Source of the DNA: Bacteroidota bacterium
GTDB taxonomy: Bacteria > Bacteroidota > Bacteroidia > Chitinophagales > LD1
Length of the DNA: 64,000 nucleotides
NCBI GenBank assembly: GCA_016715625.1
Contig: JADJZU010000007.1
Coordinates: 13,237 to 77,236, forward strand
Direction of reading: 5' to 3'
A model generated the notes under the pieces. The model was given only the letters and a program-made list of their open reading frames with translations. It was not told where the DNA came from and searched no databases. How positions within the stretch are numbered: the first letter of the stretch is position 1; each line of letters starts with the position of its first letter. A program made the translations under genes and the position numbers. Of this stretch, positions 35,552-64,000 are shown in pieces.

Positions 35552-35580
35552 ATTTACCATCGCTCAAATAGCGAAGTGGT

Positions 35581-36972: not shown

Positions 36973-36979
36973 AGGCTAT

Positions 36980-38988: not shown

Positions 38989-39636
38989 ATGGCAACAACC
39001 CTCTCCCATACCGAAAAACAAAAACTTTACAAGTTCGCTTTTGGGCTTGCTGTTTTTACCATCTTCTATAACATAGCAGAAGGTCTTGTTTCTACCTACC
39101 TGGGTTACGAGGCCGAAAGTTTAACCCTGTTCGGCTTTGGGGCCGACAGCTTTATAGAAGTGGTGTCCGGTCTTGGCATTGCTCACATGCTATACCGCAT
39201 TCAACAACATCCCGATAGCAATCGCAACAAGTTTGAACGAACTGCATTACGGGTAACAGGGTTTGCTTTTTACGCTTTAGTGGTGCTGCTGGTAGTAACC
39301 GCTCTGTATAATATCGGGACCGGTCATAAACCTGAATCCACCTTTTGGGGTGTAGTCATATCTGTCATCTCCATTGTGGTGATGCTGGTTTTAATTTACG
39401 GCAAAACAAAAGTGGGCACACAACTTAACTCTGACGCCATTCTTGCAGACGCGGAATGCACAAGGGTTTGCATTTATATGTCTGTTATTCTGTTACTAAG
39501 CAGTGGCATTTACGAGTTAACCAACTTTGCTTACACAGACAGTATTGGCTCCCTCGCACTGGCTTACTTTTCATTCAAGGAGGGTAAGGAGTGTTTTGAT
39601 AAAGCAAAGTCAGACAAGCTTTGCACATGTGGCTAA
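38989..39636 (+). CDS. Cation-efflux (CDF-like) membrane protein, transmembrane domain only
   Basis: The 215-aa product has six predicted helices. NIAEGLVSTYLG and FGADSFIEVVSG resemble the Asp/Glu-containing TM2 region of cation diffusion facilitators. The C-terminal tail is Cys-rich (KLCTCG). Confidence 0.6.
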   Translation: MATTLSHTEKQKLYKFAFGLAVFTIFYNIAEGLVSTYLGYEAESLTLFGFGADSFIEVVSGLGIAHMLYRIQQHPDSNRNKFERTALRVTGFAFYALVVLLVVTALYNIGTGHKPESTFWGVVISVISIVVMLVLIYGKTKVGTQLNSDAILADAECTRVCIYMSVILLLSSGIYELTNFAYTDSIGSLALAYFSFKEGKECFDKAKSDKLCTCG

Positions 39637-49031: not shown

Positions 49032-50546
49032 TTGCTTTCAATATTTTTTCTACCAGATAATCTTTGCCCAGCAGAAAACTGCAGGTAATCACAGCACTTA
49101 CCGAAACACCCAACACCCCGTGTAAGTTTATGTTCTGCCCGGTTAAATAGAGGTTGTCGATTTTTGTTTTGGGCGAAATCATTGTTTTAAGGGGTTCGTT
49201 GTAATCTCTCAATATGCCATACATGTTGCCATCGGTGCTGCCAATGTAGTCGCGATAGGAGAGGGGAGTGGAGGTGTAATACGATTGGATACTGTTTCGG
49301 AAGCCCGGAAATTTCTTTTCTACCGTTTCTAATAGTTTTTCCGCTTTTCGCTTTTAAATGCCTCGTAACTTTCGCCTCTTTCGTTTTTATGTAGGGTAGT
49401 GTTATGCGTATCGGCCCATTCTTTTACTTCATCAAATTTCATATAGGCCATAATGGTAACCGCTTCGGCATATTCGTTTTGATGCTGTGGCACACACTCA
49501 AAAAAGGCGTAGGTGTAAGGCCAGGTTTGCTCAGTGTAATCGTGGCAGCGCCATACATCCTGTTCGTCAAAGTAATAATAGTTACGGTTTCGGTGTTGGA
49601 ATGTGCCAGGCTTAAGCGTAGCATAAATCACAAAAACCGATATGGAGTTGTCAAGATTCTTTATCCTGTTTCTAAAAACCTGACGGATGGCGTGGCTATC
49701 GGTCAGCTCCAGAGTCTGCTGCGGAGGTATATTGGAAATAAATGTTTCTGCCCTTATTCTTTCTCCGCTTTCCAGCATCAGACTTTTTGCTACTCCATCG
49801 GTAACTTCCAGATGAACCGCTTTTTGTTTTCGTAAAATATCCCCTCCATTTTCTTTAATCACCCGGGCTATGAGCTTGGCAATCTGATCGCCTCCCTGTT
49901 TGCATTTCATAGCACTTTCAATGTAGCTATTGACAACCAGTGCGTGAATATACATGGGTGTTTTGTCGGCTATCCCGGCATAAAGCAGGTTGGTGCCGGC
50001 CAATACTTGCTGCAGTTTTTTATTGCTGGTTATTCCTGCAATAAAATCCCGAACACCGGTAGTAAAAACACTGTTATCCTGATAGGTTCCTTGCGTGCGC
50101 AGGTAGTACATAGGGAAATTGTTGCAGATGCGTTTCATCTCTTCGCAATACCTATGTATAGCCTCCTTTTCTTCCGGAAATTTGTTTCCCAGTATTCGCT
50201 CGAAGTTTTCGTACCCCATGCCATAGGGATATTCATCGTTATCATCTCCAAACAACACCACGTCAAAACCTTCTTCGTCCATCTTTACCAATTCCAGTCT
50301 ATCCATTATACCTAAATACTGAAAAATCTGAAATAGATTATGCCCCTTTTCGAGCCCTCCGATATAGTGAACACCGGTGTCAAAAGTGACTCCATCCCGT
50401 TTAAATGTTTGAAGACTTCCTCCTATCTGCTCGTTCTTTTCTACGATACATACACGCTTGCCTTCTTTCGCCAATATAGCGCCACACACCAAACCCGCCA
50501 GTCCACTGCCTATAATCACGATATCATATTTCTTCTCCATGTTCAT
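49015..50546 (-). pseudogene. NAD(P)/FAD-dependent oxidoreductase (phytoene-desaturase-like), interrupted by one frameshift
   Basis: The N-terminal part (track ORF 49329..50546) has YDIVIIGSGLAGLVCGAILAKEGKRVCIVEKNEQIGG and ends ...YEAFKSEKRKNY-stop. A second frame continues KRKAEKLLETVEKKFPGFRNSIQSYYTSTPLSYRDYIGSTDGNMYGI...LYLTGQN (track ORF 49015..49224). One extra base in the T4 run at 49352-49355 would restore a single ORF of about 510 aa. Confidence 0.7.
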
Positions 50547-53500
50547 ACGCTATTCCATATTTTGCTTTCAGCTCGTTCATTGATTAAAATAATTTTACCA
50601 CCCTCCAGCAGCATCTCTTCCAAGCCTGTCAAAAATCTTTCCTTTTCCGGTAAGTTTTTATTAATAAATATTAGTTCGTTTACTACAAACGAGTCTTGTT
50701 TTTCCAAAACAGCAGTAAATACATCTGTTTGATAAAAGTGGAGGTTGGGTGTAAGCAGATAGCCATTTTTCGCAATGTCTATTTTATGCTCATTTACATC
50801 ATAGCCTGTTACAACTCTGGTTTCACTCAACAGTGCCAGTATGTATGCTACATATCCATAGCTGCAACCCAACACAGCCACCTTCCCATTTTCGGGGATA
50901 AGCCTGTTTAATGCGTCATATTTTTCTGAGTTAAAATGTTGCTTCAGTGCGTATGCAAACACTTCAGGGCCTTTGTATGTATAATTTAATCTTAGCTGTT
51001 GACGGAAATATCCGGCTGTTTCTTTTTCCTTTTTCAGCAACTCGTATTCGTGCTTGAAATGTCGCGAGATCAGTTTTGTTCGTTCGGCATACCCTTCGCC
51101 ATAGGATTTATCATCAGGCGCAATTCGGGGTAAAAACTTCATAGTCATGGAGGCATTCATAACCATAAAATCACCTTTGCGTATAGTATCTCCGGTGCCA
51201 TGCAATACCATTGGAATAATGTCCAGTTTCAGTTTTTCTGCCAGAAAAAATGCTCCCTTGTGGAAGCGCTTTAGCTTCCTGTCGGGTGAACGGGTGCCTT
51301 CCGGAAAAACGACAATGGAATAGCCGTCCTTCACAATGTCTTCAAACTTGTCTATGGCAGGATCTACCCCTTCCATTACCGGATAGTAGTCGGCCAGTTG
51401 CACTACTTTACCAAACACCGGTGAATAATACACCCAGCGATTGGTGAGCAAAATGAGTTTTGGATGCTGCATTACGGTTACCAGAATATCGAGAAAGGAT
51501 TGGTGATTGGCTATGATGATGGCCGGCTTCGAAAAATCCATCCGGTTTTTGTTTACATGCGTTTTGCGCACATTGACCATCATGTAGGTAAGTCCGCGCA
51601 GGCACCAGCACATTAAATGATGCAGCCAAAGTTTTCTTGTTTTTAGTTTTACGAACGGGAGTGCGTAAATCAGGATATAGCCAATGAGAGAGAGCAGCAA
51701 AGACCCTGCTACATAATAGGAAAAGGCAATAATGGTGAGTACCAGCGAACTGATGGTATAAGGCGGTAGCCCTTTATCTTTTCTACTTTGAATCAGTGCA
51801 TTAAACAGGAATGGCTGAACAGTTTGGCCAATCAGCAGCACACAAAAAATGCCAATGATGGAGATGAGGGCAATGGATTGTAGGGCGGGGTGTTTAGCAA
51901 AAATCAGTGCGCCCAAACCAATAATGGTTGTAGCGGCACACAAAATGATAGAGACTTTATGGGAGGCAATGGTCTCTTTTCCTTCGGCATATTTTTTCAT
52001 TAACCCATCGGTGGTAAAAATGCTGAAGTCGTCTCCCAATCCGAAAATGAAGGTGGAGATGATGATATTGATAAGGTTAAAAGGTATATGTAGCAAAGCC
52101 ATAATCCCCAGAATCCATATCCAGGAAATAAGCATGGGTAGAAAAGTGATAATGGTGAGTTCAAGGCTTCCATAGCTCACGAGCAGGGATACAAAAACTA
52201 ATAGGGAGGTGAAAAGCAGAATGCGGTTGAAATCGGAATACAAAATACTAACCAGCGAATTGGTGATTATTTGTTTATCCAGAATTACTGCACTGCTGTT
52301 TTGCAACGAGGCATAAAATTCCTGGCGGGTGGCTTTGTTTACTTTTACTGCATTGAGCACTACTGTATTGTTCGGGTTGCTGAAGAATAACTCGTTGCCT
52401 ACCGAATTTTTAAGTACATCAAAATCTGTTTGACTTATGGGCCTATAGCTGCTGTTCAGTAGACTCTCAAAATGATCAAACGCCTGCGGCCTGAATTTGA
52501 ATTTAGCACCTTCCGATTTTAGTACGGAGAGCACCTGAGTCTTTTTCTCCTCCGTCCAATAGTTATTCCACTGCCTCCACTTTTGCTGCTGTTTGTCACG
52601 GGATGGAAGAAACCAATTGATAGACGAATATTTTTTAACCCAACCTTTCTGTTCCGCCAAGGCCAGCTGCTCGAGCAATTGCTCATTTTGCGCTAAAACC
52701 TGCTCCGCATTTTGTCCGGTAGACGCTATAAACACCGTTTTAGATTTGCTATCCTGCATCACATCCAACTCTTGCTGAGCTTTTTGTAGCGCTTCATCCA
52801 GATAGCTGTAATGATTCATATCGCTGTCAAATTCAACACTTCCTGCTTTCAACAAAAAGAACAGTGTAAGCACAAGGATGGCAACAAACACTTTGCCTTG
52901 ATGCGGAACTGCACCGGACATAAAACGCTCTAATAAGTTTGGGGTATGTATTAAATGCTTTGGATGTTTTTCCTGTGCGAAGTGTGGTAGGAATACGAGC
53001 GCAAAAATGGTAGCTCCGGTCAGGCTGAGTCCGGCAAACAATCCGAAATCGTTGAGGATTTGCGACTGTAGAAAGAGGAGCGAAAAAAACGAACCTACGG
53101 TAGTGAAACTTCCGATAGTCATGGGTTGCCACAAATCGGCAATCGTTTGTTTTACAGAACCGCAGTGTTTGAGGTGACTGAAAAAATGAATCGAATAATT
53201 AATAGCAATCCCCAGTATGATACTGCCTGCGCCCAACGCAATACTGGAGATACTTCCTTTGTAGATACCGATTATGGCCAATGAAAATAGCGCACCGAAA
53301 AGCACTGGTAGCATCATCACCAGCGGCACACGCTTCTGCCGGAAGAAAAAGAAGGTAAAGGCCAGCAGACTCACTACTGTGATACTGAGTGTAAGCAGCG
53401 TATCTCTTCTTAATTGCCGGGCATTGCTAACACCTACGATGGGGCCGCCAAAAAAGATAATCTCCTGACCGGATGGTGCCGCAAAGTTGGAAAGTGATTC

Positions 53501-54187
53501 AAAAAGTAGCTCATTTTTCGAAGTTTCGTTGGCGGTATGCGTAGGCGCAATGAAAAGCACCAGGCTTCGGTTACTATCGCTGAGCATATAACCGTCATAC
53601 AATTGATATTTTTCGTCCAGCGGCAGGGTTTCCAATCGTTTCAATGCCAGCGGTGTGATTCCTAACGGATCATCGGCAATCAATCGTTTGAGTATAAAAC
53701 CCGAAGCAGAAGTGAGTGCCTGATAATTGGCTTCTGTTTTGGCGGCCAAACACTCCGGTGTGCAAAGCGAGTCAATCGTTTTATAATCCTCATCGGTCAA
53801 AAACAAAGGGAGGTTATGATGAATGGCTTCATACACTTCGGTGGCCGATTCGTCATCCACCCGTATCTTTATATCAGCAATGCTTTCGGCACAGTTTTGC
53901 TGTAGCCATAGCACCAGGCTGTCTGCAGTGGCTATCAGCGCTTCTGTTTCTGTTTGCTCGTTGCCGCGTATTTTTACAATTATCTTATCGCCCAGTTTCG
54001 ATTGTTTAAGCAAATCGTTGATCTGCTGCGCTTGCTGCCCGTTAGGTAATATTCGGGTAATGTCTTCTTCAATGTGAACACGAAAAGCCAAAATGCCCAG
54101 AACAGCAAAGCATGTCAGTGCACACGCATACAGCAAAGGTCTTCGCTGCTCAAAAAAGGAATATGTGGCTAATAGAATACGCTCCAT
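50543..54187 (-). CDS. Trifunctional fusion: MMPL/RND-like exporter + lysophospholipid (PlsC-type) acyltransferase + SAM-dependent methyltransferase-like domain
   Basis: The 1214-aa product has about 780 aa with two blocks of TM helices separated by large soluble loops, fitting MMPL architecture. The acyltransferase motifs are NHQSFLDILV (HX4D) and VVFPEGTRS. The C-terminal ~200 aa carry VAVLGCSYGYVAYILA...GYDVNEHKIDIA, resembling methyltransferase motifs I and II. The stop overlaps the next gene's start as ATGA. Confidence 0.8.
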   Translation of the reverse strand: MERILLATYSFFEQRRPLLYACALTCFAVLGILAFRVHIEEDITRILPNGQQAQQINDLLKQSKLGDKIIVKIRGNEQTETEALIATADSLVLWLQQNCAESIADIKIRVDDESATEVYEAIHHNLPLFLTDEDYKTIDSLCTPECLAAKTEANYQALTSASGFILKRLIADDPLGITPLALKRLETLPLDEKYQLYDGYMLSDSNRSLVLFIAPTHTANETSKNELLFESLSNFAAPSGQEIIFFGGPIVGVSNARQLRRDTLLTLSITVVSLLAFTFFFFRQKRVPLVMMLPVLFGALFSLAIIGIYKGSISSIALGAGSIILGIAINYSIHFFSHLKHCGSVKQTIADLWQPMTIGSFTTVGSFFSLLFLQSQILNDFGLFAGLSLTGATIFALVFLPHFAQEKHPKHLIHTPNLLERFMSGAVPHQGKVFVAILVLTLFFLLKAGSVEFDSDMNHYSYLDEALQKAQQELDVMQDSKSKTVFIASTGQNAEQVLAQNEQLLEQLALAEQKGWVKKYSSINWFLPSRDKQQQKWRQWNNYWTEEKKTQVLSVLKSEGAKFKFRPQAFDHFESLLNSSYRPISQTDFDVLKNSVGNELFFSNPNNTVVLNAVKVNKATRQEFYASLQNSSAVILDKQIITNSLVSILYSDFNRILLFTSLLVFVSLLVSYGSLELTIITFLPMLISWIWILGIMALLHIPFNLINIIISTFIFGLGDDFSIFTTDGLMKKYAEGKETIASHKVSIILCAATTIIGLGALIFAKHPALQSIALISIIGIFCVLLIGQTVQPFLFNALIQSRKDKGLPPYTISSLVLTIIAFSYYVAGSLLLSLIGYILIYALPFVKLKTRKLWLHHLMCWCLRGLTYMMVNVRKTHVNKNRMDFSKPAIIIANHQSFLDILVTVMQHPKLILLTNRWVYYSPVFGKVVQLADYYPVMEGVDPAIDKFEDIVKDGYSIVVFPEGTRSPDRKLKRFHKGAFFLAEKLKLDIIPMVLHGTGDTIRKGDFMVMNASMTMKFLPRIAPDDKSYGEGYAERTKLISRHFKHEYELLKKEKETAGYFRQQLRLNYTYKGPEVFAYALKQHFNSEKYDALNRLIPENGKVAVLGCSYGYVAYILALLSETRVVTGYDVNEHKIDIAKNGYLLTPNLHFYQTDVFTAVLEKQDSFVVNELIFINKNLPEKERFLTGLEEMLLEGGKIILINERAESKIWNSV

Positions 54188-54371: not shown

Positions 54372-54839
54372 ATGAAACATTTAGCATCCTTTTTACTTCT
54401 GGTGGCCGCTCTATCATTAAATGCCCAGGAAATTACGCAGCAATACGACAAGATTGACAAATTTGACCAGGGAGTTGCGGTAATGTGGAAGAACGGCAAG
54501 TGCGGTTTGGTGTCACAAACAGGTAAAGAGATTATCAAACCGCAATTCGACAACATTGGTCGGTTTGGGAGAGATGGAATCGCTTATACCCACAAAAACG
54601 GCTTAATGGGTTTGGTGAACATGACAGGCAAAGTGATAGTTGACAACATTTATGGCGACATTGGTCGTTTCAATGGGTTTTGGGCAATCACTCGAAAAAA
54701 CGGGCTTGCCGGTATGATAAACAAACAAGGTAAAGTGCTTATTGAGAACAAGTACGAATCCATTAAAGTGGAGAAAGGTGGCATCATCCGAGGAGTGATT
54801 GGCGGTAAAGAAGTTATCCTTACGTTAAAAGACGAGTAA
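54372..54839 (+). CDS. WG-repeat (KWG-like) secreted protein
   Basis: The product has a signal peptide. It has three to four repeats of the type KNGKCGLVSQTGKEIIKPQFDNIGRF, KNGLMGLVNMTGKVIVDNIYGDIGRF and KNGLAGMINKQGKVLIENKYESI. Confidence 0.7.
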   Translation: MKHLASFLLLVAALSLNAQEITQQYDKIDKFDQGVAVMWKNGKCGLVSQTGKEIIKPQFDNIGRFGRDGIAYTHKNGLMGLVNMTGKVIVDNIYGDIGRFNGFWAITRKNGLAGMINKQGKVLIENKYESIKVEKGGIIRGVIGGKEVILTLKDE

Positions 54840-54865
54840 CTACGATTTAAAATTTTTTTTAAAAG

Positions 54866-54896
54866 AGGTCACCCAAAGCTGGTGACTTCTTTTTTT
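54866..54896 (+). terminator. Rho-independent terminator after the WG-repeat gene
   Basis: The stem pairs GGTCACC (54867-54873) with GGTGAC (54881-54886). It is followed by TTCTTTTTTT. Confidence 0.6.
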
Positions 54897-54952
54897 ACCC
54901 GATTTTTAGTTCTTTGTAAATCAGTCGATTAGGTCTTTAGAGTTTTTGTTTT

Positions 54953-54968
54953 GGTGATTTATATCATC
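54953..54968. promoter_or_regulatory. Candidate CRP/FNR-type operator S2 (GGTGATTTATATCATC)
   Basis: The site is centred about 61 bp upstream of the regulator gene's ATG at 55022. It matches S3 at 14 of 16 positions. Confidence 0.45.
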
Positions 54969-55021
54969 ATTTCTGATTTCCTCTTTTTTTTAACATTGCC
55001 AACACAAACATCTGTTAGCAA

Positions 55022-56080
55022 ATGCCTAAAATCCTACTCATTGAATCTTCGAAGGATTATCGAAACTCCATCACCGAGATACTGACCATGGCCGGATATG
55101 ATGTGATAACTGCTGCGGATGGAAAAACCGGCTTTTCCACTGCCGTCAGAGAAGTTCCGGATTTGATTATCTGCGATGTTTTAATTCCCCTTCTTGATGG
55201 CTATGGAGTTTTGAAATTGGTGAGCCACGAACCGGTACTGAGCGCTATTCCATTTATTTCGCTTACCCATAAAACTGAATGGGCAGAAATGCGTAAACTT
55301 ATCACCTTAGGGGCAGATGATTACCTCAGTCGGGATGCCGATAGTTCAGATTTGCTGTTAGCGGTGGAAGCACAAATAGCAAAAAGCCGAAGGATGAAAG
55401 CTGATCGAATAGCTAATGGAAGTGAACAGGCCAGAGAAGTTTTGCAATCCAAGCACGTTAGCCTGCTCCATTTTGTTGGAAACGGACGAGATAAAAGACG
55501 GTTCAAGAAGAAACAGATTATTTATTCGGAGGGGGAACGAAACGGGTATCTCTACTTTGTGTTGAGTGGTAGTGTGAAATGTTTTGTTACCAGTGATCAG
55601 GGTAAAGAATTGATTACAGACTTTTTTACCGAAGGCGATTTTTTTGGCTTTTATTCATTGATTTCGGGCTTGCCTCATTCCGATTCTGCCGAGGCTATGA
55701 GCGAAACCGAGTTGATTCTGATTCCCAAAAAGGAGTTTACGGAGGTGATGGAAAAGGATAGCACACTCTCCAAAGAGTTTACCCGTATTTTAAATAAACA
55801 AGTAGCCGACCGCGATGATGTTCTCGTTAGCATTGCTTACGATTCAGCCCGAAAACGGGTGGCCAACGGCCTACTTAAAGTCTTCGAAAAGTTTAAAAAG
55901 AAAGCGAATGGGACTAATGAGGTAAATATAGGTCGTACCGATTTGGGCAATATGTGTGGGGTTACCAAGGAATCCACTATTCGTATTTTATCTGACCTGA
56001 AAGAAGAAAAGCTGATTGATATAGTCGACAGCAAGATTATTGTGCTGCAGCAAGACAAACTCCGTAATTTGGTTAACTGA
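55022..56080 (+). CDS. Hybrid transcriptional regulator: receiver (REC) domain + cNMP-binding domain + Crp/Fnr-type HTH
   Basis: The first ~120 aa are CheY-like (KILLIESS, LIICDVLIPLLDG, PFISLT, GADDYLSRD). A cNMP-binding beta-barrel follows (IIYSEGERNGYLYFVLSGSVKC...GDFFG). The C-terminal HTH reads RTDLGNMCGVTKESTIRILSDLKEEKLI. Confidence 0.8.
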   Translation: MPKILLIESSKDYRNSITEILTMAGYDVITAADGKTGFSTAVREVPDLIICDVLIPLLDGYGVLKLVSHEPVLSAIPFISLTHKTEWAEMRKLITLGADDYLSRDADSSDLLLAVEAQIAKSRRMKADRIANGSEQAREVLQSKHVSLLHFVGNGRDKRRFKKKQIIYSEGERNGYLYFVLSGSVKCFVTSDQGKELITDFFTEGDFFGFYSLISGLPHSDSAEAMSETELILIPKKEFTEVMEKDSTLSKEFTRILNKQVADRDDVLVSIAYDSARKRVANGLLKVFEKFKKKANGTNEVNIGRTDLGNMCGVTKESTIRILSDLKEEKLIDIVDSKIIVLQQDKLRNLVN

Positions 56081-56094
56081 TATCTCTACACAAT

Positions 56095-56110
56095 GGTGAT
56101 GTAGATCATC
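56095..56110. promoter_or_regulatory. Candidate CRP/FNR-type operator S3 (GGTGATGTAGATCATC)
   Basis: The site is centred about 101 bp upstream of the ATG at 56204, in the 123-bp intergenic region after the regulator gene. Confidence 0.45.
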
Positions 56111-56116
56111 TCTTTC

Positions 56117-56132
56117 GATGATTCATATCACT
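56117..56132. promoter_or_regulatory. Candidate CRP/FNR-type operator S4 (minus strand reads AGTGATATGAATCATC)
   Basis: The plus strand reads GATGATTCATATCACT. The reverse complement matches the GGTGAT-N4-ATCATC pattern at 11 of 12 specified positions. Its centre is 22 bp from the S3 centre, about two helical turns. Confidence 0.45.
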
Positions 56133-56203
56133 GGTGTGCTGTAGGCTGTTGAGGCACTCCTGGGTTATAATTGCGCTTCACTTAAAACGCAAAATATCAT
56201 CCC

Positions 56204-58519
56204 ATGATTAAAGAAATTACTAAACATCTTTCTAAACTGACATTAGCAGTTTTAATACTGCTAAGTTCAACCGCAGTCTTTGCCGGCACGCAATATGTTG
56301 CCAATCCGGGTATTACATTTGTCGATAATCTTACACAATGGAATGCGGCATTTGCAGCAGCGGGGCCCTCAGCATTACCAGCCTATGATGAGTATTATAT
56401 CGGTTCGGGCAGTGCGATTATTGTTGGTAAAATTACCGGCACCACCAATAACGTAGACCTCACCGGTGGTATTGATAAACGGATTATTATTCAGAGCGGT
56501 GGCGCTTTAGGATTCAGATCGCAGGGTTTTAATGCCTTGCACCTGTCGCCCGCTTCGGTAGTGGAAGTGGAACCAAACGGACAGTTGGGTTTTTACTTGT
56601 TGATTCCTGCCAACTTTGGCGGTCAGGGCAATTCAGCAGGCTCCGATTGGTATGGAAATACCAACGAGTTTCTGTTCTTTACCCCCACTTTCCCGGGCAC
56701 TCCGGGTGCTACCCCTGCTATCAAAGGACCTTATGTGATAGCGCCTACCGGTTTCGGTACGGTGTTAGATGTTTCGGATGCGGGTATCCCAGCACTGTCG
56801 GCTCCTAAAACCAGAATCTGGAATGGTAGTGCCTTTGATTATGACTGGAACAATGCCAATAACTGGGCCCCTGTGCAAACGGCCGGTGGTCCGGTGTTTT
56901 CTGTTCCATCCGGTACTGACGTAGCGATTATACCTGATTCCAATCAATTGGGCGTACCCACCATCAGTTACCCGGAGTTGCAAACACAAAATATAACCGT
57001 TCATGATTTGGTAGTGGAAGATGAAGCGTATGTGGGGATTGATTTTGCCAGTTCGCTCAACGTAACCGGTGATGTGGTGAATATCGGCACTATCTCACTG
57101 CAAGCCGGTGGTGCGTTGAAAGTAGCAGACGCTACCGACTGGGTGGCCAACATAGGCGGAGACTCTATCGGCTTTCTTTATGTAAACCTCAACCTGGCGG
57201 GTCCATCTCCTTGGTTTATGAGTAGTATGTATGTAACCGGAGCACCTTCGGCCTGGGGCTCCAGTTGCGGTGATGCACAGATTGTGCCTACCGCCTGCGA
57301 TGCGCCATCGCTGGGCAGCACTACTTTTTGCACCATGGAACTTAACCAGAGCAACACGGCCACTGCGCTTAACTGTTCTCACTCTTTGTGGAATTATAAA
57401 TCCAGTGGATTGTTTACCCCCGGCAGAGGTTTCTCGTTGTATGCACCTTCCTTCTCGCCTACATGGAGAGGAGCCGACCCGCACACCGATCCGGTATCGT
57501 ATGGTCCGCTGGGGTATTCCAATCTGGGTAATTTGAATTTGCCGGCCGGTTTTGGTGGCACAGTTACTCGTGGCTGGCATATGTTGGGCAATCCTTATTC
57601 TTGCCCTATTGAACTGACCGCAGCCGACAGAGCCGCTATGGGCTTTGAGGGACAAATGCATTTTTGGGATAATGGTTCATGGGTAAGTCCTGCTCCGGGT
57701 GCTACGGTAACAGTAGCGGTAGGTCAGGGCTTTCAGATGCGCGTAGCCGGTGGCGTTGGTGGCTCCGCTACTTTTGCCGTCAACGAAGCGCACCGCAAAA
57801 CAACTACCGGTGTTACCTTCTACAAAACCGAAGAAAACGATGCGTATGTAAACATTACGATTGGTGATGGCGCATTTACTAATAAGGCTTCTGTTTACTT
57901 CGTAGATGGTGCTACCGATGCGTTTGATGGGGCGTATGATGCAAACCGTTTGTTTGGTTTAGTAGAGCGCCCTTATGTTTACACCATTGAGCAAAACGGA
58001 GAGTTTCTTTCTTACAATGCCCTTCCGTTGCTGGTCAGCGGCACGACCAAATCGGTTCCGCTATCGGTGCACATTGGTGTAAATGGCACTCACACGCTTA
58101 CGTTTGATGGTATTGATGCAGCTAACGCTACAGTGGTATTGGAAGATTTAACAAGCGGCAATATGTATCCTGTTACCGAAGGATATGTGCACAGTTTTTC
58201 AGCTCAAACAAGTGATAATCCAAATCGCTTTGTGTTGCACTTTAGCGCAAACGCAGTTTCCGGTATTAAGAACATGAATAATAGCAATGTAACCTTGTTC
58301 CCAAATCCTACTACCGGTCGTGCTACTATCATGCTTAATGAAAATCACGGATTCAATAAAGTAACGGTTCTGGATTTTTCAGGTAGAGTAGTTTATTCAG
58401 AGGCACTTGCTGCATCTGACATGAGCAAAACATTCGAAGTTTCAGGCATGTCAAGCGGTATCTATACGGTGAGACTTACCGGAACAACCACCGCTACACA
58501 GAAGTTAATTAAACAGTAA
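56204..58519 (+). CDS. Large secreted protein with a T9SS type-A C-terminal sorting domain
   Basis: The 771-aa product has the signal peptide LTLAVLILLSSTAVFAG. I recognised no catalytic domain. The C-terminal part reads VTLFPNPTTGRATIMLNENHGFNKVTVLDFSGRVVYSE...GIYTVRLTG...QKLIKQ. Confidence 0.75.
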   Translation: MIKEITKHLSKLTLAVLILLSSTAVFAGTQYVANPGITFVDNLTQWNAAFAAAGPSALPAYDEYYIGSGSAIIVGKITGTTNNVDLTGGIDKRIIIQSGGALGFRSQGFNALHLSPASVVEVEPNGQLGFYLLIPANFGGQGNSAGSDWYGNTNEFLFFTPTFPGTPGATPAIKGPYVIAPTGFGTVLDVSDAGIPALSAPKTRIWNGSAFDYDWNNANNWAPVQTAGGPVFSVPSGTDVAIIPDSNQLGVPTISYPELQTQNITVHDLVVEDEAYVGIDFASSLNVTGDVVNIGTISLQAGGALKVADATDWVANIGGDSIGFLYVNLNLAGPSPWFMSSMYVTGAPSAWGSSCGDAQIVPTACDAPSLGSTTFCTMELNQSNTATALNCSHSLWNYKSSGLFTPGRGFSLYAPSFSPTWRGADPHTDPVSYGPLGYSNLGNLNLPAGFGGTVTRGWHMLGNPYSCPIELTAADRAAMGFEGQMHFWDNGSWVSPAPGATVTVAVGQGFQMRVAGGVGGSATFAVNEAHRKTTTGVTFYKTEENDAYVNITIGDGAFTNKASVYFVDGATDAFDGAYDANRLFGLVERPYVYTIEQNGEFLSYNALPLLVSGTTKSVPLSVHIGVNGTHTLTFDGIDAANATVVLEDLTSGNMYPVTEGYVHSFSAQTSDNPNRFVLHFSANAVSGIKNMNNSNVTLFPNPTTGRATIMLNENHGFNKVTVLDFSGRVVYSEALAASDMSKTFEVSGMSSGIYTVRLTGTTTATQKLIKQ

Positions 58520-58553
58520 ACTGCATTAAGCAGAAAAAATAAAAAATACAGCT

Positions 58554-58760
58554 ATGAATAATTTAAATAAAATACTCGGTTTAACTTTCCTGTTAATGGT
58601 AGGTTTTGCATACATAACTAACGCTCAGGTGCCGCCTCCGGGTAACACCACTCCCTCTGCAGTCCCCATTGATGGAGGAGTGATAAGCATTGTAGGGGCA
58701 AGTATTGCTTACGGTGCCAAAAAGCTATACGATAAAAACAAAGCGAAAAAAGGAGAATAA
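58554..58760 (+). CDS. 68-aa precursor: signal peptide + ~13-16 aa Pro/Thr-rich core + PID-GG / TM helix / Lys-rich C-terminal sorting-signal-like tail
   Basis: The signal peptide is MNNLNKILGLTFLLMVGFAYITNA, with a likely cleavage site after TNA. The core is QVPPPGNTTPSAV. The tail has the motif PIDGG, the helix VISIVGASIAYGA and the basic cluster KKLYDKNKAKKGE. This is the tripartite layout of PEP-CTERM-class signals. The gene starts 34 bp after the upstream gene's stop. Confidence 0.6.
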   Translation: MNNLNKILGLTFLLMVGFAYITNAQVPPPGNTTPSAVPIDGGVISIVGASIAYGAKKLYDKNKAKKGE

Positions 58761-58783
58761 TTCCTTTTTATTTTAAACAAAAA

Positions 58784-58812
58784 CCGCTGCTGAAACAGGC
58801 AGCGGTTTTTTT
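58784..58812 (+). terminator. Strong rho-independent terminator between the precursor gene and the exosortase-like gene
   Basis: The stem pairs CCGCTGC (58784-58790) with GCAGCGG (58799-58805) across an 8-nt loop. A T7 run follows (58806-58812). The next ATG is only 12 bp downstream. Confidence 0.75.
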
Positions 58813-58823
58813 ATTTATGCATC

Positions 58824-59393
58824 ATGCTGAGGCAACTGCTGAAAAAAGTTTTTAGTAATGAACTGCTGATTGAGCCGGCTGAGTTTATCATAAAAGTGGC
58901 TATGGTTTATGCTCTGTGGCGTGGGCTTAAATATTGCGGAGAAACATACCCGGGTTTTTTGTGGGGTGGCTGGGCAGCCTTTTATGACTTTATCGGTAAC
59001 CTGCTTGCGTATTGTAATTCAGTTATATTAAATGTGATGGGCATTCAGCACATACATGAGAAGAGAGTAATTATTGTAGCGGGGACCAATGGTATTGAAT
59101 TCAGCGACTTGTGTTTGGGCATTGCCCCCATGTTTATTTACAGCGGTATTATTCTCGCATTTGGCACTAATCTGAAAGCTAAACTGTGGTTCATTCCCAT
59201 GGGTGTATTCTTGATTTTCCTGATTAACGTTTTTCGCTTATTAGCACTCATTCTTATCCAGGCACGCTATAACAGTTATTTTGATTTTGCACATGATTAC
59301 CTTTATGTAGTGGTAACTTACAGTTTGATATTTGTGCTGGTAATGTGGTGGATGAATCGCTGGGCGTTTGCAGGCGAGGAGAATGCCGGTTAG
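58824..59393 (+). CDS. Exosortase/archaeosortase-family membrane protein (short form of XrtF-like size)
   Basis: The 189-aa polytopic product shows the family pattern in the expected order and spacing. LNVMGIQ...VIIVAGTNGIEFSDLCLGIAPM carries the candidate catalytic Cys. FLINVFRLLALILI carries the conserved Asn-x-x-Arg. FDFAHDYLYVVVTYSLIFVLVMWWMNRW carries the conserved His. This was compared from memory with the XrtF-type motifs EGCNAIS / LNVxRI / H. Confidence 0.7.
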   Translation: MLRQLLKKVFSNELLIEPAEFIIKVAMVYALWRGLKYCGETYPGFLWGGWAAFYDFIGNLLAYCNSVILNVMGIQHIHEKRVIIVAGTNGIEFSDLCLGIAPMFIYSGIILAFGTNLKAKLWFIPMGVFLIFLINVFRLLALILIQARYNSYFDFAHDYLYVVVTYSLIFVLVMWWMNRWAFAGEENAG

Positions 59394-60574
59394 GCCTTCT
59401 TCATTTTCTTAAATGTTTTTACCACAATGTATGTGGCCGCCCAGGAGATGACGGCCAGTATAGCCCCTAATGTGAAACTGCCCAATACATATTGCAGAAA
59501 ATTCTTTTTTGCGCCTTCGAGCGACAGGTGGGTATCGTAGCTCATATGAATGCCTGCACTTCCCATCCAGATCATACCGGTTTCGTAACTTAAGAAAACA
59601 ATAATGGGAATCAGCGGTGGAATACTGATGTTCGAAGCTAAAACGGCTATGCCCTTGTTAAGCTTGAAAATAAACGCGAACAGCAATACCAGCCACATTT
59701 GAAAGCCCCATAAGGGACTAATGCCGAAGAAAACACCGAGTGCTACAGAAGAGGCTTTTACAGATGGAGTTTCATGCGGTCGAATCAAATGGTCTTCAAG
59801 AAATTGTCTCCAGTTTTTTTTTTTGATTGCTCTGAAAAAATTTCTTGGCTTTATCCAAGCAAAAGTCCAGAACACCAGGACCGTATTTAAAACGCTGATT
59901 CTTGAAAAATCTTTAAACGGTCGGAAATGTGTAATTCGTTCATCAGCCGGAGGGTAGTATACCTTAACCGGAACGGCAATTACATCCAAACCGCTCCAGG
60001 CTCCTCTTACAATTACCTCTATTTCAAATTCATATTTTCTGGTAAAAAAATGAATGTGTTTCAATTTCTGTATAGGATATAACCGATATCCGGATTGCGT
60101 GTCCGGAAGTTCAATGCCGGTTTCCAGCGTAAACCAGAAGTTGGAGAATTTATTGCCAAAACTACTCTTGCCGGGTACCGAGCTCTGATTCATGTTGCGA
60201 GCGCCAATGACAATGGCATGATTGTTTTTCTCCAAGGCATCCAGCATGGTAGGCAAATCTTCGGCAAAATGCTGTCCGTCTGTGTCCAGTGTAATGGCAT
60301 ATTCATACCCCTGCGCTAAGGCAAACGCAAATCCTTGTCGAAGGGCCCAACCTTTGCCTTTATTTTGTTCGTAGGAGTGGAGTTTGATATTGGGATATTG
60401 AGATAGAATTTCGAGCGTGTTATCCGTTGAGCCGTCATTCACCACACAAATATCATTAGTGTAGGTTGCTACATCCTCTAACACACCCGCTATGGTTTTC
60501 GAATTATTGTAGGTAGGAAGTAATACACAGCATTTTAGTTTTTTAAAACGCTGTTGTGTGTTGTGTTCAGGCAT
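59390..60574 (-). CDS. Family 2 glycosyltransferase fused to a DUF2062 membrane domain
   Basis: The GT2 part reads CCVLLPTYNNSKTIAGVLEDV...VVNDGSTDNT...TLDTDGQH. The C-terminal DUF2062-like part reads ALGVFFGISPLWGFQMWLVLLFAFIFKLNKGIAVLASNISIPPL. I chose the start MPEHN at 60574, which gives an ATGCCTGA overlap with the upstream stop. The track start is 60613. Confidence 0.75.
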   Translation of the reverse strand: MPEHNTQQRFKKLKCCVLLPTYNNSKTIAGVLEDVATYTNDICVVNDGSTDNTLEILSQYPNIKLHSYEQNKGKGWALRQGFAFALAQGYEYAITLDTDGQHFAEDLPTMLDALEKNNHAIVIGARNMNQSSVPGKSSFGNKFSNFWFTLETGIELPDTQSGYRLYPIQKLKHIHFFTRKYEFEIEVIVRGAWSGLDVIAVPVKVYYPPADERITHFRPFKDFSRISVLNTVLVFWTFAWIKPRNFFRAIKKKNWRQFLEDHLIRPHETPSVKASSVALGVFFGISPLWGFQMWLVLLFAFIFKLNKGIAVLASNISIPPLIPIIVFLSYETGMIWMGSAGIHMSYDTHLSLEGAKKNFLQYVLGSFTLGAILAVISWAATYIVVKTFKKMKKA

Positions 60575-60932
60575 GCAGCTGTCCCTTGAATCTGAAAAAG
60601 GTTTCTGTATCACTAAAGTAACGAGCGGTGACTGCTATGGTGCTATCATTGGTGATTTCGCGGTGTATATCAAGTGTAATGGTGGGTGATTTTACCGGAT
60701 TCAAAAGGGCCAAAAACTTTACCTGACCTGCTTCTTTTACTACATATGGTTTAGCTGTAAGATGTGATATTACTTCCTCCAAAATCTGAATCTGGCACAC
60801 GCCCGGCACTACCGGCAAATGCGGAAAATGCCCTTTGAAAATTTCGTGTGCCGGGTTAAAAGATATCTGAACCAAGTCATTTTGATCCTGATGTTGAATG
60901 TCATTTATCTGATAGAAGGAACCTAAAAGCAT
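60567..60932 (-). CDS. FabZ/FabA-like hotdog-fold 3-hydroxyacyl-ACP dehydratase
   Basis: The 121-aa product contains FKGHFPHLPVVPGVCQIQILEEV. Confidence 0.7.
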   Translation of the reverse strand: MLLGSFYQINDIQHQDQNDLVQISFNPAHEIFKGHFPHLPVVPGVCQIQILEEVISHLTAKPYVVKEAGQVKFLALLNPVKSPTITLDIHREITNDSTIAVTARYFSDTETFFRFKGQLHA

Positions 60933-60987
60933 ATGGATTGATTGCGGGTGTAAAATACAGAATGAGTCAAAATATTACAGAAGAAAT

Positions 60988-61623
60988 TCATCGGAGCGTA
61001 AAGAGGGAATCTTGTAATGGGCTATTCACCAGTTTGTGCAGGAAGGTGAGTGCAGTATGGTCGCCCGAGGGTTCATGCATTTCTAAGCGGGCGGCCGTAA
61101 AATCTCTTTTGTCTATGATCATTACAATCCGGTTCAAAAAATTCTTCATGCTCTTACCGGTCGGAGCCAGTTCAATTTTTATCTGCGATTTGCTTTCAAA
61201 AAATTTCAGTGAAAAATCTTTGCTCGAAAACAGTTGTCCATTTACGGAACCTGTAATGATATTGTTGAATTGCTGAAAGAAACGGCTACGATGTATATCC
61301 AGTTGTGTGGTTTTTTTACCATCATTCATCATCATTTTACCATCATTCAAAACCAGCACACTTTTGGTGGGATGTGTATACTCCAACCGGACTTTGTTTT
61401 CTTTTTTGTAGCAGAATTTACCTTTAGAAACCGTTGGTTCCGACAGCATGCTCATGTTTTTTTCCTGCAGAAAATCAGCTTGAAGTGAATTGAACTTTTG
61501 CGAAGCCTCTGTAATCTTCTTTTTGATAGCAGTAGCATCTTTTACTTCCACGTATTCTTGCGAAAACATGCTATGGCAAGAGAAAACGAAGAGAATAGCA
61601 AGAAATGGTTTTGTAAATGTCAT
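60988..61623 (-). CDS. LolA-like outer-membrane lipoprotein carrier family protein
   Basis: The 211-aa product has a signal peptide. F..LQADFLQEKNMSMLSEPTVSKGKFCYKKENKVRLEY is typical of the LolA-like proteins found in aryl-polyene/flexirubin-type clusters. Confidence 0.7.
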   Translation of the reverse strand: MTFTKPFLAILFVFSCHSMFSQEYVEVKDATAIKKKITEASQKFNSLQADFLQEKNMSMLSEPTVSKGKFCYKKENKVRLEYTHPTKSVLVLNDGKMMMNDGKKTTQLDIHRSRFFQQFNNIITGSVNGQLFSSKDFSLKFFESKSQIKIELAPTGKSMKNFLNRIVMIIDKRDFTAARLEMHEPSGDHTALTFLHKLVNSPLQDSLFTLR

Positions 61624-61641
61624 GTTGAATAGCGCTGCAAA

Positions 61642-62415
61642 TCAAACATAAGCTTGTTGATTCAGCAATTCATCCACTCTTAAAATTTCAAAACCGCGAT
61701 TGCGTATGCCTTGAATAATTTCCGGCAAAGCATCAATAGTGAAGGGGGCCCAATCGTGGAGTAAGATGATGTCTCCGTTATTTAATCCGTTAAGCGCTTT
61801 CCGTACTACAGCATCTTTACTTTTGGCCGTGGTGTCATAGGTTCTTATGCTCCAACCAATGCACAAAAATTTTGCATTCCGCACTACTTTGCCAATCCAG
61901 GGGTTAGTTACTCCATAAGGCGGGCGAAAGAAATTCATTTGTTTACCAATGATGTCAAAAACGAGTTGATTGCAACGGGTCGTGTCCGCTATCATCGACT
62001 CTTTTGATTTCATCGAAAACCAAAAGTTGTGCTCATAACTATGATTGCCGACTATATGCTCTTCTTCCAGCATTTTCATGAGAAGTTCTTCGTTGCCTTG
62101 AATGTTTTTACCGATTACAAAAAAGCAGGCTTTTACCTTTTCCCGGTGTAATATCTCGAGTACTTTATCGGTGTGTTGTTTGCTGGGGCCATCGTCAAAG
62201 GTAAGTGCAACAGCCTTTTTGTTTCTATCGCCATGCCAGTGAGCCTTTACATAAAAATCAGATTGAATAAAATAAGAACCGTAAAAGGATATGCTGATGT
62301 ATGCAAGGTAAATGATGGGGTAAACCCATATTGGCACCTCGTAGTAAACATCCATTAACAGCACCAGTATCGTTAATGCTACGAAGAATATTCTGTTATA
62401 AATGTATTTCAGCAT
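61642..62415 (-). CDS. Polysaccharide deacetylase (NodB homology) family protein with an N-terminal membrane anchor
   Basis: The product contains ALTFDDGP, GNHSYEH and RPPYG motifs. Its start overlaps the upstream stop as ATGCTGA. Confidence 0.8.
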   Translation of the reverse strand: MLKYIYNRIFFVALTILVLLMDVYYEVPIWVYPIIYLAYISISFYGSYFIQSDFYVKAHWHGDRNKKAVALTFDDGPSKQHTDKVLEILHREKVKACFFVIGKNIQGNEELLMKMLEEEHIVGNHSYEHNFWFSMKSKESMIADTTRCNQLVFDIIGKQMNFFRPPYGVTNPWIGKVVRNAKFLCIGWSIRTYDTTAKSKDAVVRKALNGLNNGDIILLHDWAPFTIDALPEIIQGIRNRGFEILRVDELLNQQAYV

Positions 62416-63458
62416 GCGTGAAAAAGCATGAGGGAATGATACCGCTTATAGGAATTATACACTAATACCACTCGTGGGGAGCGTTGTCTGTTTTCAATAA
62501 TAACAGCATCGGGAACGCTGTTTGTTTTCATCATTTTACACGCTAACCAAAAGCCAAAAGCTGATGCGGTCATATACTCACCACAAAGATGCTTATAAGC
62601 GGTTATGGTGGATTGTTTGAATAAATCTTGAACGGTTTCGGTGAGTGCATCTTGCTTAGTTGCTCCGGAATAGCCTAATGCGGCCACATCTATATCCTCT
62701 ACCTGAAGTTGATGAGCCGTTAAGAAATCTAATATCCAATTGCGCAACTCATCCGCGTTTTCAGGGTTGAATAAAGTACTGTGACCGGATAAAGAGCCAT
62801 ACGAGTTGGCTGTTTTATCTTTACTCAGAACAAAAAAAGCAGCACCTTCACCCATTATAACTCCGGGGTTTTCTTTGCTTAAGATATCCGAACTGGTGCA
62901 GGGTTCCTGTCGCAGTTCACCCACATGCTTAAACTTGGCGTGTGCAAACTGCCCCACCTCATCATACGCTCCAATCAACACACTTTGCTTGCCTTCCTGT
63001 AACATAAACGCTGTATCTGTCAAAGCGCTTTCAAACGAAAAACCGCGTTGCGAAAAGGTATTATTGTGGGCATGGCAACCACACAGCAATGCAATGTTGG
63101 AGCTAACGGTATTATGAGTGCTCAAAATGAAGGAGGTGGGACTCACCACACCTTCCTGCGTTGCTATAACATCAGCCAAGAATTTTTGGGATAAATCCAA
63201 TAATCCAAATCCGGTTGCCGTGGAAATGGCTCCGGGAGTTTCTACACCTGCATCGCGCAAAGCAATAAGTCCGGCTGTGGTGCCAAACTTTAATAGTCTT
63301 CCCATTCTGCGCACTGCACCAGGGTCTAGAAACTTCGTGTAGTCAGGGTCTATGCACAACATTTTATCGGTGGCATATTCCTTCACTTCCTTCAGAAACT
63401 CATCGTTGCGAAAGGTGTTTTGCGGAGAAATGCAACCAATGCCATTGATGTATGTCAT
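62409..63458 (-). CDS. Beta-ketoacyl synthase-like protein lacking the nucleophilic Cys (chain-length-factor-like partner)
   Basis: The product has a thiolase-fold length and the N-terminus MTYINGIGCISPQ. The region where KS enzymes carry T-A-C-S-S reads STHNTVSSNIALL, with no Cys at the aligned position. I set the start at the ATG at 63458, which gives an ATGA overlap with the upstream KS stop. Confidence 0.65.
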   Translation of the reverse strand: MTYINGIGCISPQNTFRNDEFLKEVKEYATDKMLCIDPDYTKFLDPGAVRRMGRLLKFGTTAGLIALRDAGVETPGAISTATGFGLLDLSQKFLADVIATQEGVVSPTSFILSTHNTVSSNIALLCGCHAHNNTFSQRGFSFESALTDTAFMLQEGKQSVLIGAYDEVGQFAHAKFKHVGELRQEPCTSSDILSKENPGVIMGEGAAFFVLSKDKTANSYGSLSGHSTLFNPENADELRNWILDFLTAHQLQVEDIDVAALGYSGATKQDALTETVQDLFKQSTITAYKHLCGEYMTASAFGFWLACKMMKTNSVPDAVIIENRQRSPRVVLVYNSYKRYHSLMLFHAC

Positions 63459-64000
63459 GCCCGTGCTTTTGAGAAAATAAGAGAAGAACAATTTCCACCA
63501 AAGCCAAATGAGTTACTCATTACATGTTTTACATCCTGATTTTCAAGAAACTTTGTGCAAGGCTCAAAGTTGAGTTCTTTCATTTTGGTTGTGAATCGCA
63601 AGTGCGGAAGAATGATTCCTTTTTCTAAACATAAAATAGAAAACACAGCCTCTACCGCTGCACATGCACCCAGGGTGTGGCCGGTAAAAGGTTTGGTAGA
63701 ACTTACAGGAGGTATGTGGGTTCCAAAAATTTGCTCGATGGCCACACCTTCACTTAAGTCATTGTTACTGGTTCCCGTGCCGTGAAGGTTGATATAACTT
63801 ATGTCTTCCGGTTTTAGTCCACTGCTCCGCAATGCGCCACTCATAGCCAGGTAGTTTCCTTTTCCCTCGGGAGAAGAGGCTGTTTGATGAAAGGCATCAT
63901 TCGCATTTTCATAGCCGCTTAACTTAGTCAAAGGTTGGGAGGCGAGCGTGGCGGCTACTCTTTCTGAAACCAGCACAATGTATGCCGCTCCTTCTCCCAG
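63455..64000 (-). CDS. Beta-ketoacyl-ACP synthase (FabF/KAS II-like); the 5' end lies beyond the window
   Basis: The frame is open to the window edge (LGEGAAYIVLVSERVAA...). The catalytic His motifs NLHGTGTSNND and TGHTLGACAAVE are present, as is the C-terminal NSFGFGGNCSSLIF. Confidence 0.85.
   Translation of the reverse strand: MGEGAAYIVLVSERVAATLASQPLTKLSGYENANDAFHQTASSPEGKGNYLAMSGALRSSGLKPEDISYINLHGTGTSNNDLSEGVAIEQIFGTHIPPVSSTKPFTGHTLGACAAVEAVFSILCLEKGIILPHLRFTTKMKELNFEPCTKFLENQDVKHVMSNSFGFGGNCSSLIFSKARA

Follow-up and report, generated by a model that had tools for sequence, protein, structure and literature searches.

A PID-CTERM mini-precursor and an XrtX-like exosortase-family enzyme encoded side by side in a Chitinophagales bacterium

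What does a minimal exosortase-like membrane enzyme act on when the gene directly upstream encodes a precursor of just 68 residues? This question is raised by a 64-kb stretch of DNA from a Bacteroidota bacterium of the order Chitinophagales (contig JADJZU010000007.1; the whole stretch is called the window here). Exosortases are widespread, and to our knowledge the chemistry and the acceptors of the bacterial enzymes are still unknown. Our analysis leads us to conclude, with a probability of about 0.72, that the two genes encode an enzyme and its substrate, and that this pair represents a divergent Chitinophagales branch of the PID-CTERM/exosortase X (XrtX) class. An initial annotation, made by reading the DNA, had located both open reading frames (ORFs) and the enzyme motifs correctly. 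Three elements are central to the argument:

58554 to 58760, plus strand: PID-CTERM mini-precursor of 68 residues (NF046080; PF28310 as precomputed for its cluster)
58779 to 58817, plus strand: hairpin resembling an intrinsic terminator, 13 bp followed by a T-run (folding, shuffled sequences, terminator scan)
58824 to 59393, plus strand: XrtX-like exosortase-family enzyme of 189 residues (TIGR04178, XrtX model, conserved residues)

The larger protein had been proposed to be an exosortase, and this assignment held. It scores 51.7 bits against the NCBIfam signature TIGR04178 (cutoff 23) over residues 96–178, and it contains the motifs DLCLGI, NVFRL and FAHDY in this order. The putative catalytic residues are Cys97 (nt 59112–59114), Asn135 and Arg138 (nt 59226–59237), and His157 (nt 59292–59294). 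Cys97, Arg138 and His157 are invariant in an alignment of 26 full-length clade members, and the same columns align in 71 broader relatives that include true XrtX, where Cys97 and His157 occur in all 71 sequences and Asn135 and Arg138 in 70. At E ≤ 0.001, TIGR04178 matches 27 of 29 clade members; truncated or chimeric sequences are among those that it misses.

Among the models for individual families, NF046081 (exosortase X, XrtX) gave the highest score for the enzyme, with 102.2 bits and a cutoff of 170. Archaeosortase B (60.7 bits, cutoff 150), XrtY (60.0 bits, cutoff 160) and XrtF (TIGR04128; 49.3 bits, cutoff 90) followed, and the scores on the 8TM_EpsH and ArtA models were far under their cutoffs. 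True XrtX members in related loci reach 176–225 bits on the XrtX model, and none of the 29 close homologue clusters attains its cutoff (best E-value 1.2e-36). Because a score of 102 bits compares with a cutoff of 170, we classify the enzyme by sequence as XrtX-like, not as XrtX proper. Its branch is small: in 1.84 billion sequences we found 26 representatives at E ≤ 1e-30 versus 2683 at E ≤ 1e-3. A scan of genome contigs returned one locus (L001), and the enzyme gene is the sole exosortase-like gene of the window.

In an AlphaFold2 model of the enzyme (pLDDT 87.5), five long helices (residues 13–41, 45–72, 100–112, 117–148 and 150–179) pack compactly together, and there is a beta-hairpin. The hydropathy segments agree with these helices, and the protein is accordingly modelled as a polytopic integral membrane protein. 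Searches of the Protein Data Bank by sequence profile and, with this model, by Foldseek produced no meaningful match, and hence no solved exosortase with which to compare it. A search of enzyme and peptide against a Pfam-A copy that probably lacks PF28310 gave no match either; the enzyme probably falls under the filters of PF09721, and relatives carry precomputed hits.

The 68-residue protein begins with MNNLNKILGLTFLLMVGFAYITNA (residues 1–24, nt 58554–58625), which looks like a signal peptide by eye and ends at TNA|Q. It continues with a Pro-rich linker of 13 residues, QVPPPGNTTPSAV (nt 58626–58664), in which Gln25 is the predicted +1 residue. The sorting motif PIDGG (residues 38–42, nt 58665–58679) overlaps a hydrophobic stretch of 15 residues, G41–A55, made of Gly, Ala, Ile and Val (nt 58674–58718). 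The segment after PIDGG reads VISIVGASIAYGA, and it is followed by the basic tail KKLYDKNKAKKGE (K56–E68, nt 58719–58757) and the stop codon. The protein thus carries the tripartite PID-CTERM signal at its extreme C-terminus in addition to the N-terminal signal peptide, the latter judged by eye. On the PID_CTERM model NF046080 it scores 26.3 bits over residues 37–61, marginally above the cutoff of 26; its orthologues score 28–50 bits. Precomputed Pfam assignments place the peptide's own cluster (P0030) and all six homologous clusters (64–68 residues) in PF28310, which is also called PID_CTERM.

The initial annotation had correctly read this C-terminus as a tripartite signal of the PEP-CTERM type. 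What it had missed is that the class exists: NCBIfam already holds models for PID_CTERM, XrtX and an XrtX-associated protein (NF046080, NF046081 and NF046082), and Pfam holds PF28310. Since curators had already named the signal, the class was re-discovered from raw sequence, and by these model matches the pair belongs to it as a divergent version.

The small gene also evolves like a coding sequence. Compared with its 91%-identical orthologue in locus L018, it differs at 4, 1 and 17 sites in the first, second and third codon positions, and this substitution pattern is, as far as a sequence comparison can tell, that of a translated gene. A search with the full-length peptide gave seven candidates, all of 64–68 residues, and no large protein shares the words of the tail; in the window, a PID-type tail occurs in this single ORF. 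Two other ideas about the ORF were rejected. It is not a frameshifted extension of the upstream gene, since every locus gives it a start codon and a signal peptide of its own, and glycosylation of the linker was dismissed because orthologues do not conserve the N- and O-glycosylation sequons.

We surveyed 43 distinct peptides, assigning the +1 residue by a heuristic. In most of them the mature segment before the motif comprises 10 to about 25 residues; the shortness remarked on in the initial annotation is therefore genuine and usual in this family. Gln occupies the predicted +1 position in 33 of the 43 by the heuristic and in three more by eye. A two-Cys motif, typically PPCWPPPC[IV], precedes PIDGG in 28 of the 43, which suggests a tiny disulfide loop at the predicted cleavage site. 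Peptides of the window clade have no Cys in the mature segment. Mini-ORFs with PPCWPPPC[IV] stand directly upstream of XrtX-type genes in L034, L035, L039, L041, L042, L048, L052, L067, L072, L075, L080–L088 and L093, and variants of the motif read PCGGPFGTVC (L057–61 and L069) or PCGPPFGDPC (L062).

If the smaller protein is the substrate of the larger one, their genes should travel together. A scan of metagenomes by alignment to the enzyme yielded 80 loci with 24–57% identity to it, 68 of which could be assessed for pairing, each offering 350 nt or more of sequence upstream. We counted a locus as paired when an ORF of 54–125 residues with a P[IV]D-type tail lies on the same strand directly upstream of the enzyme gene. 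At least 39 of the 68 loci are paired in this sense; the counts are lower bounds because the tail expression skips variant motifs such as PIEDG (L053) and PVGSG, PIGSG or PVGDS (L102 and L104). Tail-pattern matches are almost confined to this position: 38 of 39 lie directly upstream of an enzyme gene, and one lies elsewhere in the 486.5 kb of related loci, both strands, on which the background was measured.

The peptide ORF of the window ends 63 nt upstream of the enzyme ATG on the same strand, which is the co-occurrence with a PID-CTERM target that characterises XrtX. Within the window clade (enzymes at least 57% identical), the peptide gene is found 60–67 nt upstream in L006, L009–13, L018–20 and L021. 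L017 has a 43%-identical peptide whose gene directly precedes that of a 185-residue exosortase, and there is no gene for a type IX secretion system (T9SS) protein. Paired loci with true XrtX include L035 (203 bits), L041 (197), L046 (176.5) and L059 (176), whose substrates have 72–108 residues. Gene adjacency is kept across several unrelated genomic contexts, which bears out the proposal that the small ORF accompanies homologues of the enzyme. Because a tail-bearing ORF lies upstream in 39 of 68 loci, true XrtX among them, a tiny substrate combined with a minimal exosortase is, judged from gene order, the normal design of the PID-CTERM/XrtX class and not a peculiarity of the window.

The XrtX-associated membrane protein (NF046082) matches neither gene that flanks the window pair. 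A tblastn search of the window with two XrtX-associated proteins found no copy within the limited sensitivity of this method. In L035, L050, L059 and L081 such a protein is encoded downstream of XrtX, as a sub-cutoff match to the model. The XrtF-partner model also matches neither flanking gene, in agreement with the initial annotation, which had noted the absence of this partner. In many canonical XrtX loci (L042, L046, L055, L059, L061, L075, L076, L081, L083, L088 and L093), a gene for a protein of about 790–808 residues lies divergently upstream, for example on the minus strand at 2053–4473 of L059. By eye, its sequence and GYGY-repeat tail look like those of a Wzc-type chain-length/tyrosine-kinase protein, and such a neighbour recalls the exopolysaccharide linkage of PEP-CTERM/EpsH systems.

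Between the two genes of the window lies the hairpin at 58779–58817. Its predicted folding energy is -20.2 kcal/mol (z = -5.3), none of 200 shuffled sequences was as stable, and a terminator scan flagged the same segment. An equivalent hairpin of differing sequence occurs in ten loci, including L018, L006, L009, L012, L021, L027, L030, L031 and L043. The intergenic gap of 60–67 nt with hairpin sets the window clade apart from canonical pairs, which are mostly separated by 4–34 nt or overlap. Since 6 nt separate the end of the hairpin from the enzyme ATG, leaving no room for a promoter, the enzyme is probably made by read-through and at a lower level than the peptide, as far as this arrangement of signals allows us to predict.

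The peptide gene has a second close neighbour. The block of genes on the plus strand extends from 54372 to 59393 and contains, upstream of the peptide gene, three more genes:

54372 to 54839, plus strand: WG-repeat protein of 155 residues (PF14903 WG_beta_rep, E = 1.7e-19)
55022 to 56080, plus strand: protein of 352 residues with a response-regulator receiver, a cNMP-binding domain and a Crp-type helix-turn-helix (Pfam Response_reg, cNMP_binding, HTH_Crp_2)
56204 to 58519, plus strand: secreted protein of 771 residues with a T9SS type-A C-terminal domain (TIGR04183, PF18962)

The 771-residue protein is a type-A T9SS cargo by its scores on TIGR04183 (44.8 bits, cutoff 23) and PF18962 (46.3 bits, cutoff 27), and its C-terminal domain covers residues 698–771 (nt 58295–58516). 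Its gene ends 34 nt before the peptide gene. Orthologues with 47–69% identity lie directly 5' of the peptide gene in L006, L009, L012, L018 and L021. More distant homologues are encoded in L043, L101, L102 and L104, and each is followed within 11–37 nt by a mini-ORF of matching design, in which signal peptide, Gln and a run rich in Pro and Gly lead to a short motif (PVDSG, PVGSG, PIGSG or PVGDS) and then to helix and basic tail. No exosortase gene is present within the fetched flanks of L102 and L104.

A comparison with L001 shows that this unit can be present or absent as a whole. The order in L001 is WG-repeat gene (98.5% identity), regulator (91%) and enzyme (82%), and the block of about 2.7 kb that contains T9SS gene, peptide gene and hairpin is missing (L001 5925–6005 versus window 56081–58823). 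The L001 junction aligns to the left flank and then to the right flank of the window, which makes this a clean presence/absence difference. Because the block is absent from L001 and such cassettes occur without an enzyme gene in the flanks of L102 and L104, the tightest unit, on this comparison of loci, is the cassette of T9SS protein and mini-peptide, and the enzyme can apparently act on cassettes encoded elsewhere. The notion of a dedicated pair that the initial annotation had put forward is thus too narrow, the peptide being tied at least as tightly to the 771-residue T9SS protein as to the enzyme.

Further observations concern the same cassette. The distant T9SS homologues of L104, L102 (5001–7560) and L101 (5001–7269) are followed by peptides of 76–79 residues with variant motifs (PVGSG, PIGSG, PVGDS); the L101 sequence ends 69 nt into the small ORF. 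L104 contains two units of T9SS protein and peptide in tandem (1253–3841 and 3948–7201). L054 and L076 likewise encode homologues of the T9SS protein near canonical XrtX genes. Identity between the window and L018 (5710–7965) is only 56% for the T9SS protein, compared with 91% for the peptide and 79% for the regulator; conservation may be higher in the C-terminal half of the T9SS protein, which is 63–69% identical to an L006 fragment, than over its full length, and this hints at a fast-evolving N-terminal half. The window protein shares a conserved but unmodelled middle domain (about residues 450–690, GWxxLGNPYP...) with T9SS proteins near other XrtX-like genes (L043, L054 and L076). A search for large proteins with the 771-residue sequence was dominated by low-complexity candidates, with eight matches scored, and an AlphaFold2 model from a seven-sequence alignment (pLDDT 52) was too poor for a fold search and was not used. 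In two unrelated loci (L014 6001–7004 and L102 7321–8563) an enoyl-CoA hydratase (ECH_1) gene comes next after the peptide gene, and the gene upstream of the peptide in L014 encodes a DUF5117/DUF4953 metalloprotease, not a homologue of the T9SS protein.

From these elements we propose the following course of events. The genes for T9SS protein and peptide would be transcribed together, with most transcripts ending at the hairpin, and read-through past it would supply a small amount of enzyme relative to peptide. The pre-peptide would be exported by Sec and cut after TNA24, exposing Gln25. According to the Q-rule of Bacteroidetes, an exposed Gln is usually cyclised to pyroglutamate (PMC5837995, PMC10653852). 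The C-terminal helix would keep the peptide in the inner membrane with its Lys-rich tail in the cytoplasm, until Cys97 attacks at or near PID/GG. This step would form a thioester intermediate and remove helix and tail, and a Pro-rich peptide of about 16 residues (pGlu-VPPPGNTTPSAVPID) would be passed to an acceptor or to water. Since ArtA substrates end up attached to lipid, our best guess by analogy for the acceptor is a membrane lipid amine, and the product would then be a very small lipopeptide. The peptide is probably of some use to the T9SS surface protein encoded with it.

How does the proposed pair compare with sorting systems that are already described? It resembles the PID-CTERM/XrtX class in the combination of PIDGG, hydrophobic helix and basic cluster, and in the position of the mini-ORF directly upstream of a gene for an exosortase of about 180 residues. 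It departs from that class in the sub-cutoff score of the enzyme, the missing NF046082 partner, the lack of the CWPPPC two-Cys motif, the gap of 60–67 nt with a hairpin, and the coupling of the peptide gene to a T9SS-cargo gene. With XrtF of Flavobacteriia (TIGR04128; Fjoh_1448/1449) the enzyme shares the small size of a Bacteroidota exosortase and the same catalytic columns; unlike in XrtF systems, the associated-protein gene is absent and a putative substrate is encoded next to the enzyme. In F. johnsoniae, mutants deleted for xrtF or its partner show the same class of phenotype as porU and porZ deletion mutants, and no XrtF substrates are known (PMC10936215). The likeness of these mutants to T9SS attachment mutants echoes the T9SS linkage observed here.

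PGF-CTERM/ArtA and PEP-CTERM/EpsH share the TIGR04178 superfamily and the tripartite C-terminal signal with our pair. ArtA and EpsH are much larger enzymes, each with many large cargo proteins, whereas a minimal core of 189 residues would handle a cargo of about 16 residues here. ArtA requires Cys173, Arg214 and Arg253, and its substrates become attached to lipid (PMC9263693). One-to-one "dedicated" sorting systems have been recognised through gene adjacency (bioRxiv 10.1101/2023.06.07.544157). JDVT-CTERM with its adjacent intramembrane protease is similar to the present case in that target and sorting enzyme are consecutive and adjacency is the main evidence. It is different in that its enzyme is of the Rce1/CPBP type and not an exosortase, and the relation here looks closer to one-to-few, since cassettes may be distal to the enzyme gene or present twice (L104). 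The cassette itself has a parallel as well. T9SS cargo with a type-B C-terminal domain can adjoin the gene for a cognate PorP/SprF-like partner; there as here, a large T9SS protein stands beside a small partner gene, and the unit is duplicated and dispersed. Unlike in those pairs, the partner is a Sec-exported peptide of 64–79 residues instead of an outer-membrane beta-barrel, and the cargo is type-A.

Several findings weigh against the assignment as an enzyme–substrate pair of the PID-CTERM/XrtX class. The enzyme remains below the XrtX cutoff, the peptide exceeds that of PID_CTERM by only 0.3 bits, and the window lacks NF046082, the third component of canonical loci. In L001 the enzyme stands without the cassette, L014, L102 and L104 have the peptide without an enzyme in the flank, and the enzymes of a sub-branch with 50–56% identity (L002, L004, L007, L023 and L024) have no peptide nearby. 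The tail (IAYGAKKLYD) is far more conserved than the presumed mature part in homologues that are 43–91% identical, and from this pattern the functional part could be the tail instead of the released peptide. Cleavage site, acceptor and pyroglutamate are all features that we infer, and we found no paper in the literature on PID-CTERM, XrtX or exosortase X. The conserved tail invites the alternative that the small protein is not cargo at all, and that it serves the enzyme or the T9SS cargo as a small membrane subunit or regulator through its helix and YGAKKLYD tail, with the Pro-rich part as a spacer and cleavage not required. The window lacks the XrtX-associated membrane protein, whose role a small membrane partner could fill, and in L102 and L104 the peptide adjoins T9SS-protein genes with no enzyme nearby. 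We nevertheless consider this explanation unlikely: in sorting signals the recognition tail is the part that is expected to be conserved, the conserved part here matches, position for position, a sorting-signal model that is defined by cleavage, the enzyme retains Cys, Arg and His intact, and canonical loci carry both the peptide and the associated membrane protein. Another, likewise doubtful, prospect is that the mini-peptide is a dedicated partner of the upstream T9SS protein, for example a lipid-linked Pro-rich anchor or a covalent tag. It agrees with the observations that T9SS protein and mini-peptide form a conserved, duplicated and mobile two-gene unit, that T9SS-protein homologues lie near XrtX in L054 and L076, and that xrtF mutants of F. 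johnsoniae resemble porU and porZ mutants.

We regard it as improbable that the peptide is a secreted or periplasmic pheromone resembling ribosomally synthesised and post-translationally modified peptides (RiPPs), with the exosortase as follower-peptide protease and the 352-residue regulator controlling or answering the signal. The regulator does adjoin the module in three arrangements (the window with L018, L001 and L021), mature products of 10 to about 25 residues, in canonical loci with a conserved CWPPPC loop, would suit a signal, and the terminator implies high expression of peptide and low expression of enzyme. However, sensor kinases, exporters and modifying enzymes are lacking from the module (radical SAM, YcaO and lanthipeptide synthetase genes are absent from module and orthologous loci), the regulator is absent from the flanks of L006, L009 and L012, and the window clade has a mature segment with little conservation and no Cys, unlike a signal recognised by a receptor. 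The initial annotation had speculated that the peptide is transferred to a lipid or glycolipid made by the neighbouring genes. In the window and in L018–20 the module does lie between an MMPL/acyltransferase gene and genes for GT2-DUF2062, ApeI-like and LolA-like proteins, ketosynthase and acyl carrier protein (ACP), that is, amid an aryl-polyene/flexirubin-type cluster, and lipid attachment is the known outcome for ArtA substrates (PMC9263693). This speculation has become very improbable, since the trios of L006, L009–13 and L021 and the pair of L017 occupy unrelated flanks, the module runs on the strand opposite to every lipid gene, and the T9SS-gene and peptide block is a clean indel relative to L001. 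Finally, a chance ORF beside an orphan enzyme might be suspected from a length of only 68 residues and a score of 26.3 bits that barely passes the PID_CTERM cutoff. Seven homologous clusters with the same layout, the bias to third codon positions, and adjacency to the enzyme in 39 of 68 loci with the tail pattern almost nowhere else effectively refute this suspicion.

The wider surroundings of the enzyme–substrate pair can be described as follows. Aryl-polyene/flexirubin-type lipid genes occupy the minus strand at 50543–54187 and 59390–63976, around the plus-strand block of 54372–59393, and they encode an MMPL-acyltransferase-methyltransferase fusion, GT2-DUF2062, ApeI-like and LolA-like proteins, a deacetylase, ketosynthases and ACP. 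The pair does lie amid these genes, as the initial annotation had said, though all of them are on the opposite strand. The block consists of five genes (WG-repeat, regulator, T9SS protein, peptide and enzyme), and the WG-repeat gene opens this block, which interrupts the lipid cluster. Only the closest relatives, L018–L020, share the lipid-cluster context; in other loci the flanks differ and contain, for example, CMAS/SBF genes or a Mur ligase gene (L006, L009–13, L017 and L021 have unrelated flanks). Because this context is not conserved, the lipid-acceptor idea finds no support in synteny, and the aryl-polyene/flexirubin genes are probably unrelated to the module. The regulator gene, whose product possibly regulates the module, is syntenic in L018–20. 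Its L001 counterpart (91% identity) is the gene directly upstream of the enzyme, and L021 encodes a homologue with 36% identity downstream of the enzyme. The WG-repeat gene is syntenic only in L001 (98.5%) and L018–20 (95%), and its membership of the functional module is uncertain.

The sub-branch of enzymes with 50–56% identity has a conserved order of gldB, labelled in our analysis as a gliding lipoprotein gene, a polytopic membrane protein of about 290–305 residues, and the enzyme (L002 about 3950–6560). This membrane protein may be an alternative accessory subunit. Homologues of it with 24–26% identity are encoded downstream of the enzyme in L031, L032, L043 and L099/L100. Elsewhere in the window, the region 35560–38990 has no ORF longer than 115 residues; judged by eye, fragmented frames in it are similar to a pyridoxal-phosphate-dependent decarboxylase and a LysE-type exporter and thus point to pseudogenes or frameshifts. 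A 21-bp tandem repeat of 3.7 copies (37856–37933) lies in the same region. An Rfam search of the whole window gave no match.

If the pair merely trims an inconsequential small peptide, our result amounts to the ordinary annotation of a known family. PID-CTERM and XrtX are nevertheless catalogued without literature, so that any experiment on them would be new, and a substrate of about 16 residues encoded next door provides a simple handle on an exosortase, because the product is small enough to be identified by mass spectrometry together with any acceptor that it has joined. We see the most interesting lead in the connection with T9SS. The cassette of peptide and T9SS protein constitutes a testable link between two surface-sorting pathways of Bacteroidota, and it fits the unexplained xrtF phenotype. 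If the mini-peptide were indeed the dedicated partner of the T9SS protein, XrtX-like enzymes, and perhaps XrtF, would be a missing link in the surface attachment of T9SS cargo in bacteria without the A-LPS (anionic lipopolysaccharide) anchor of Porphyromonas.

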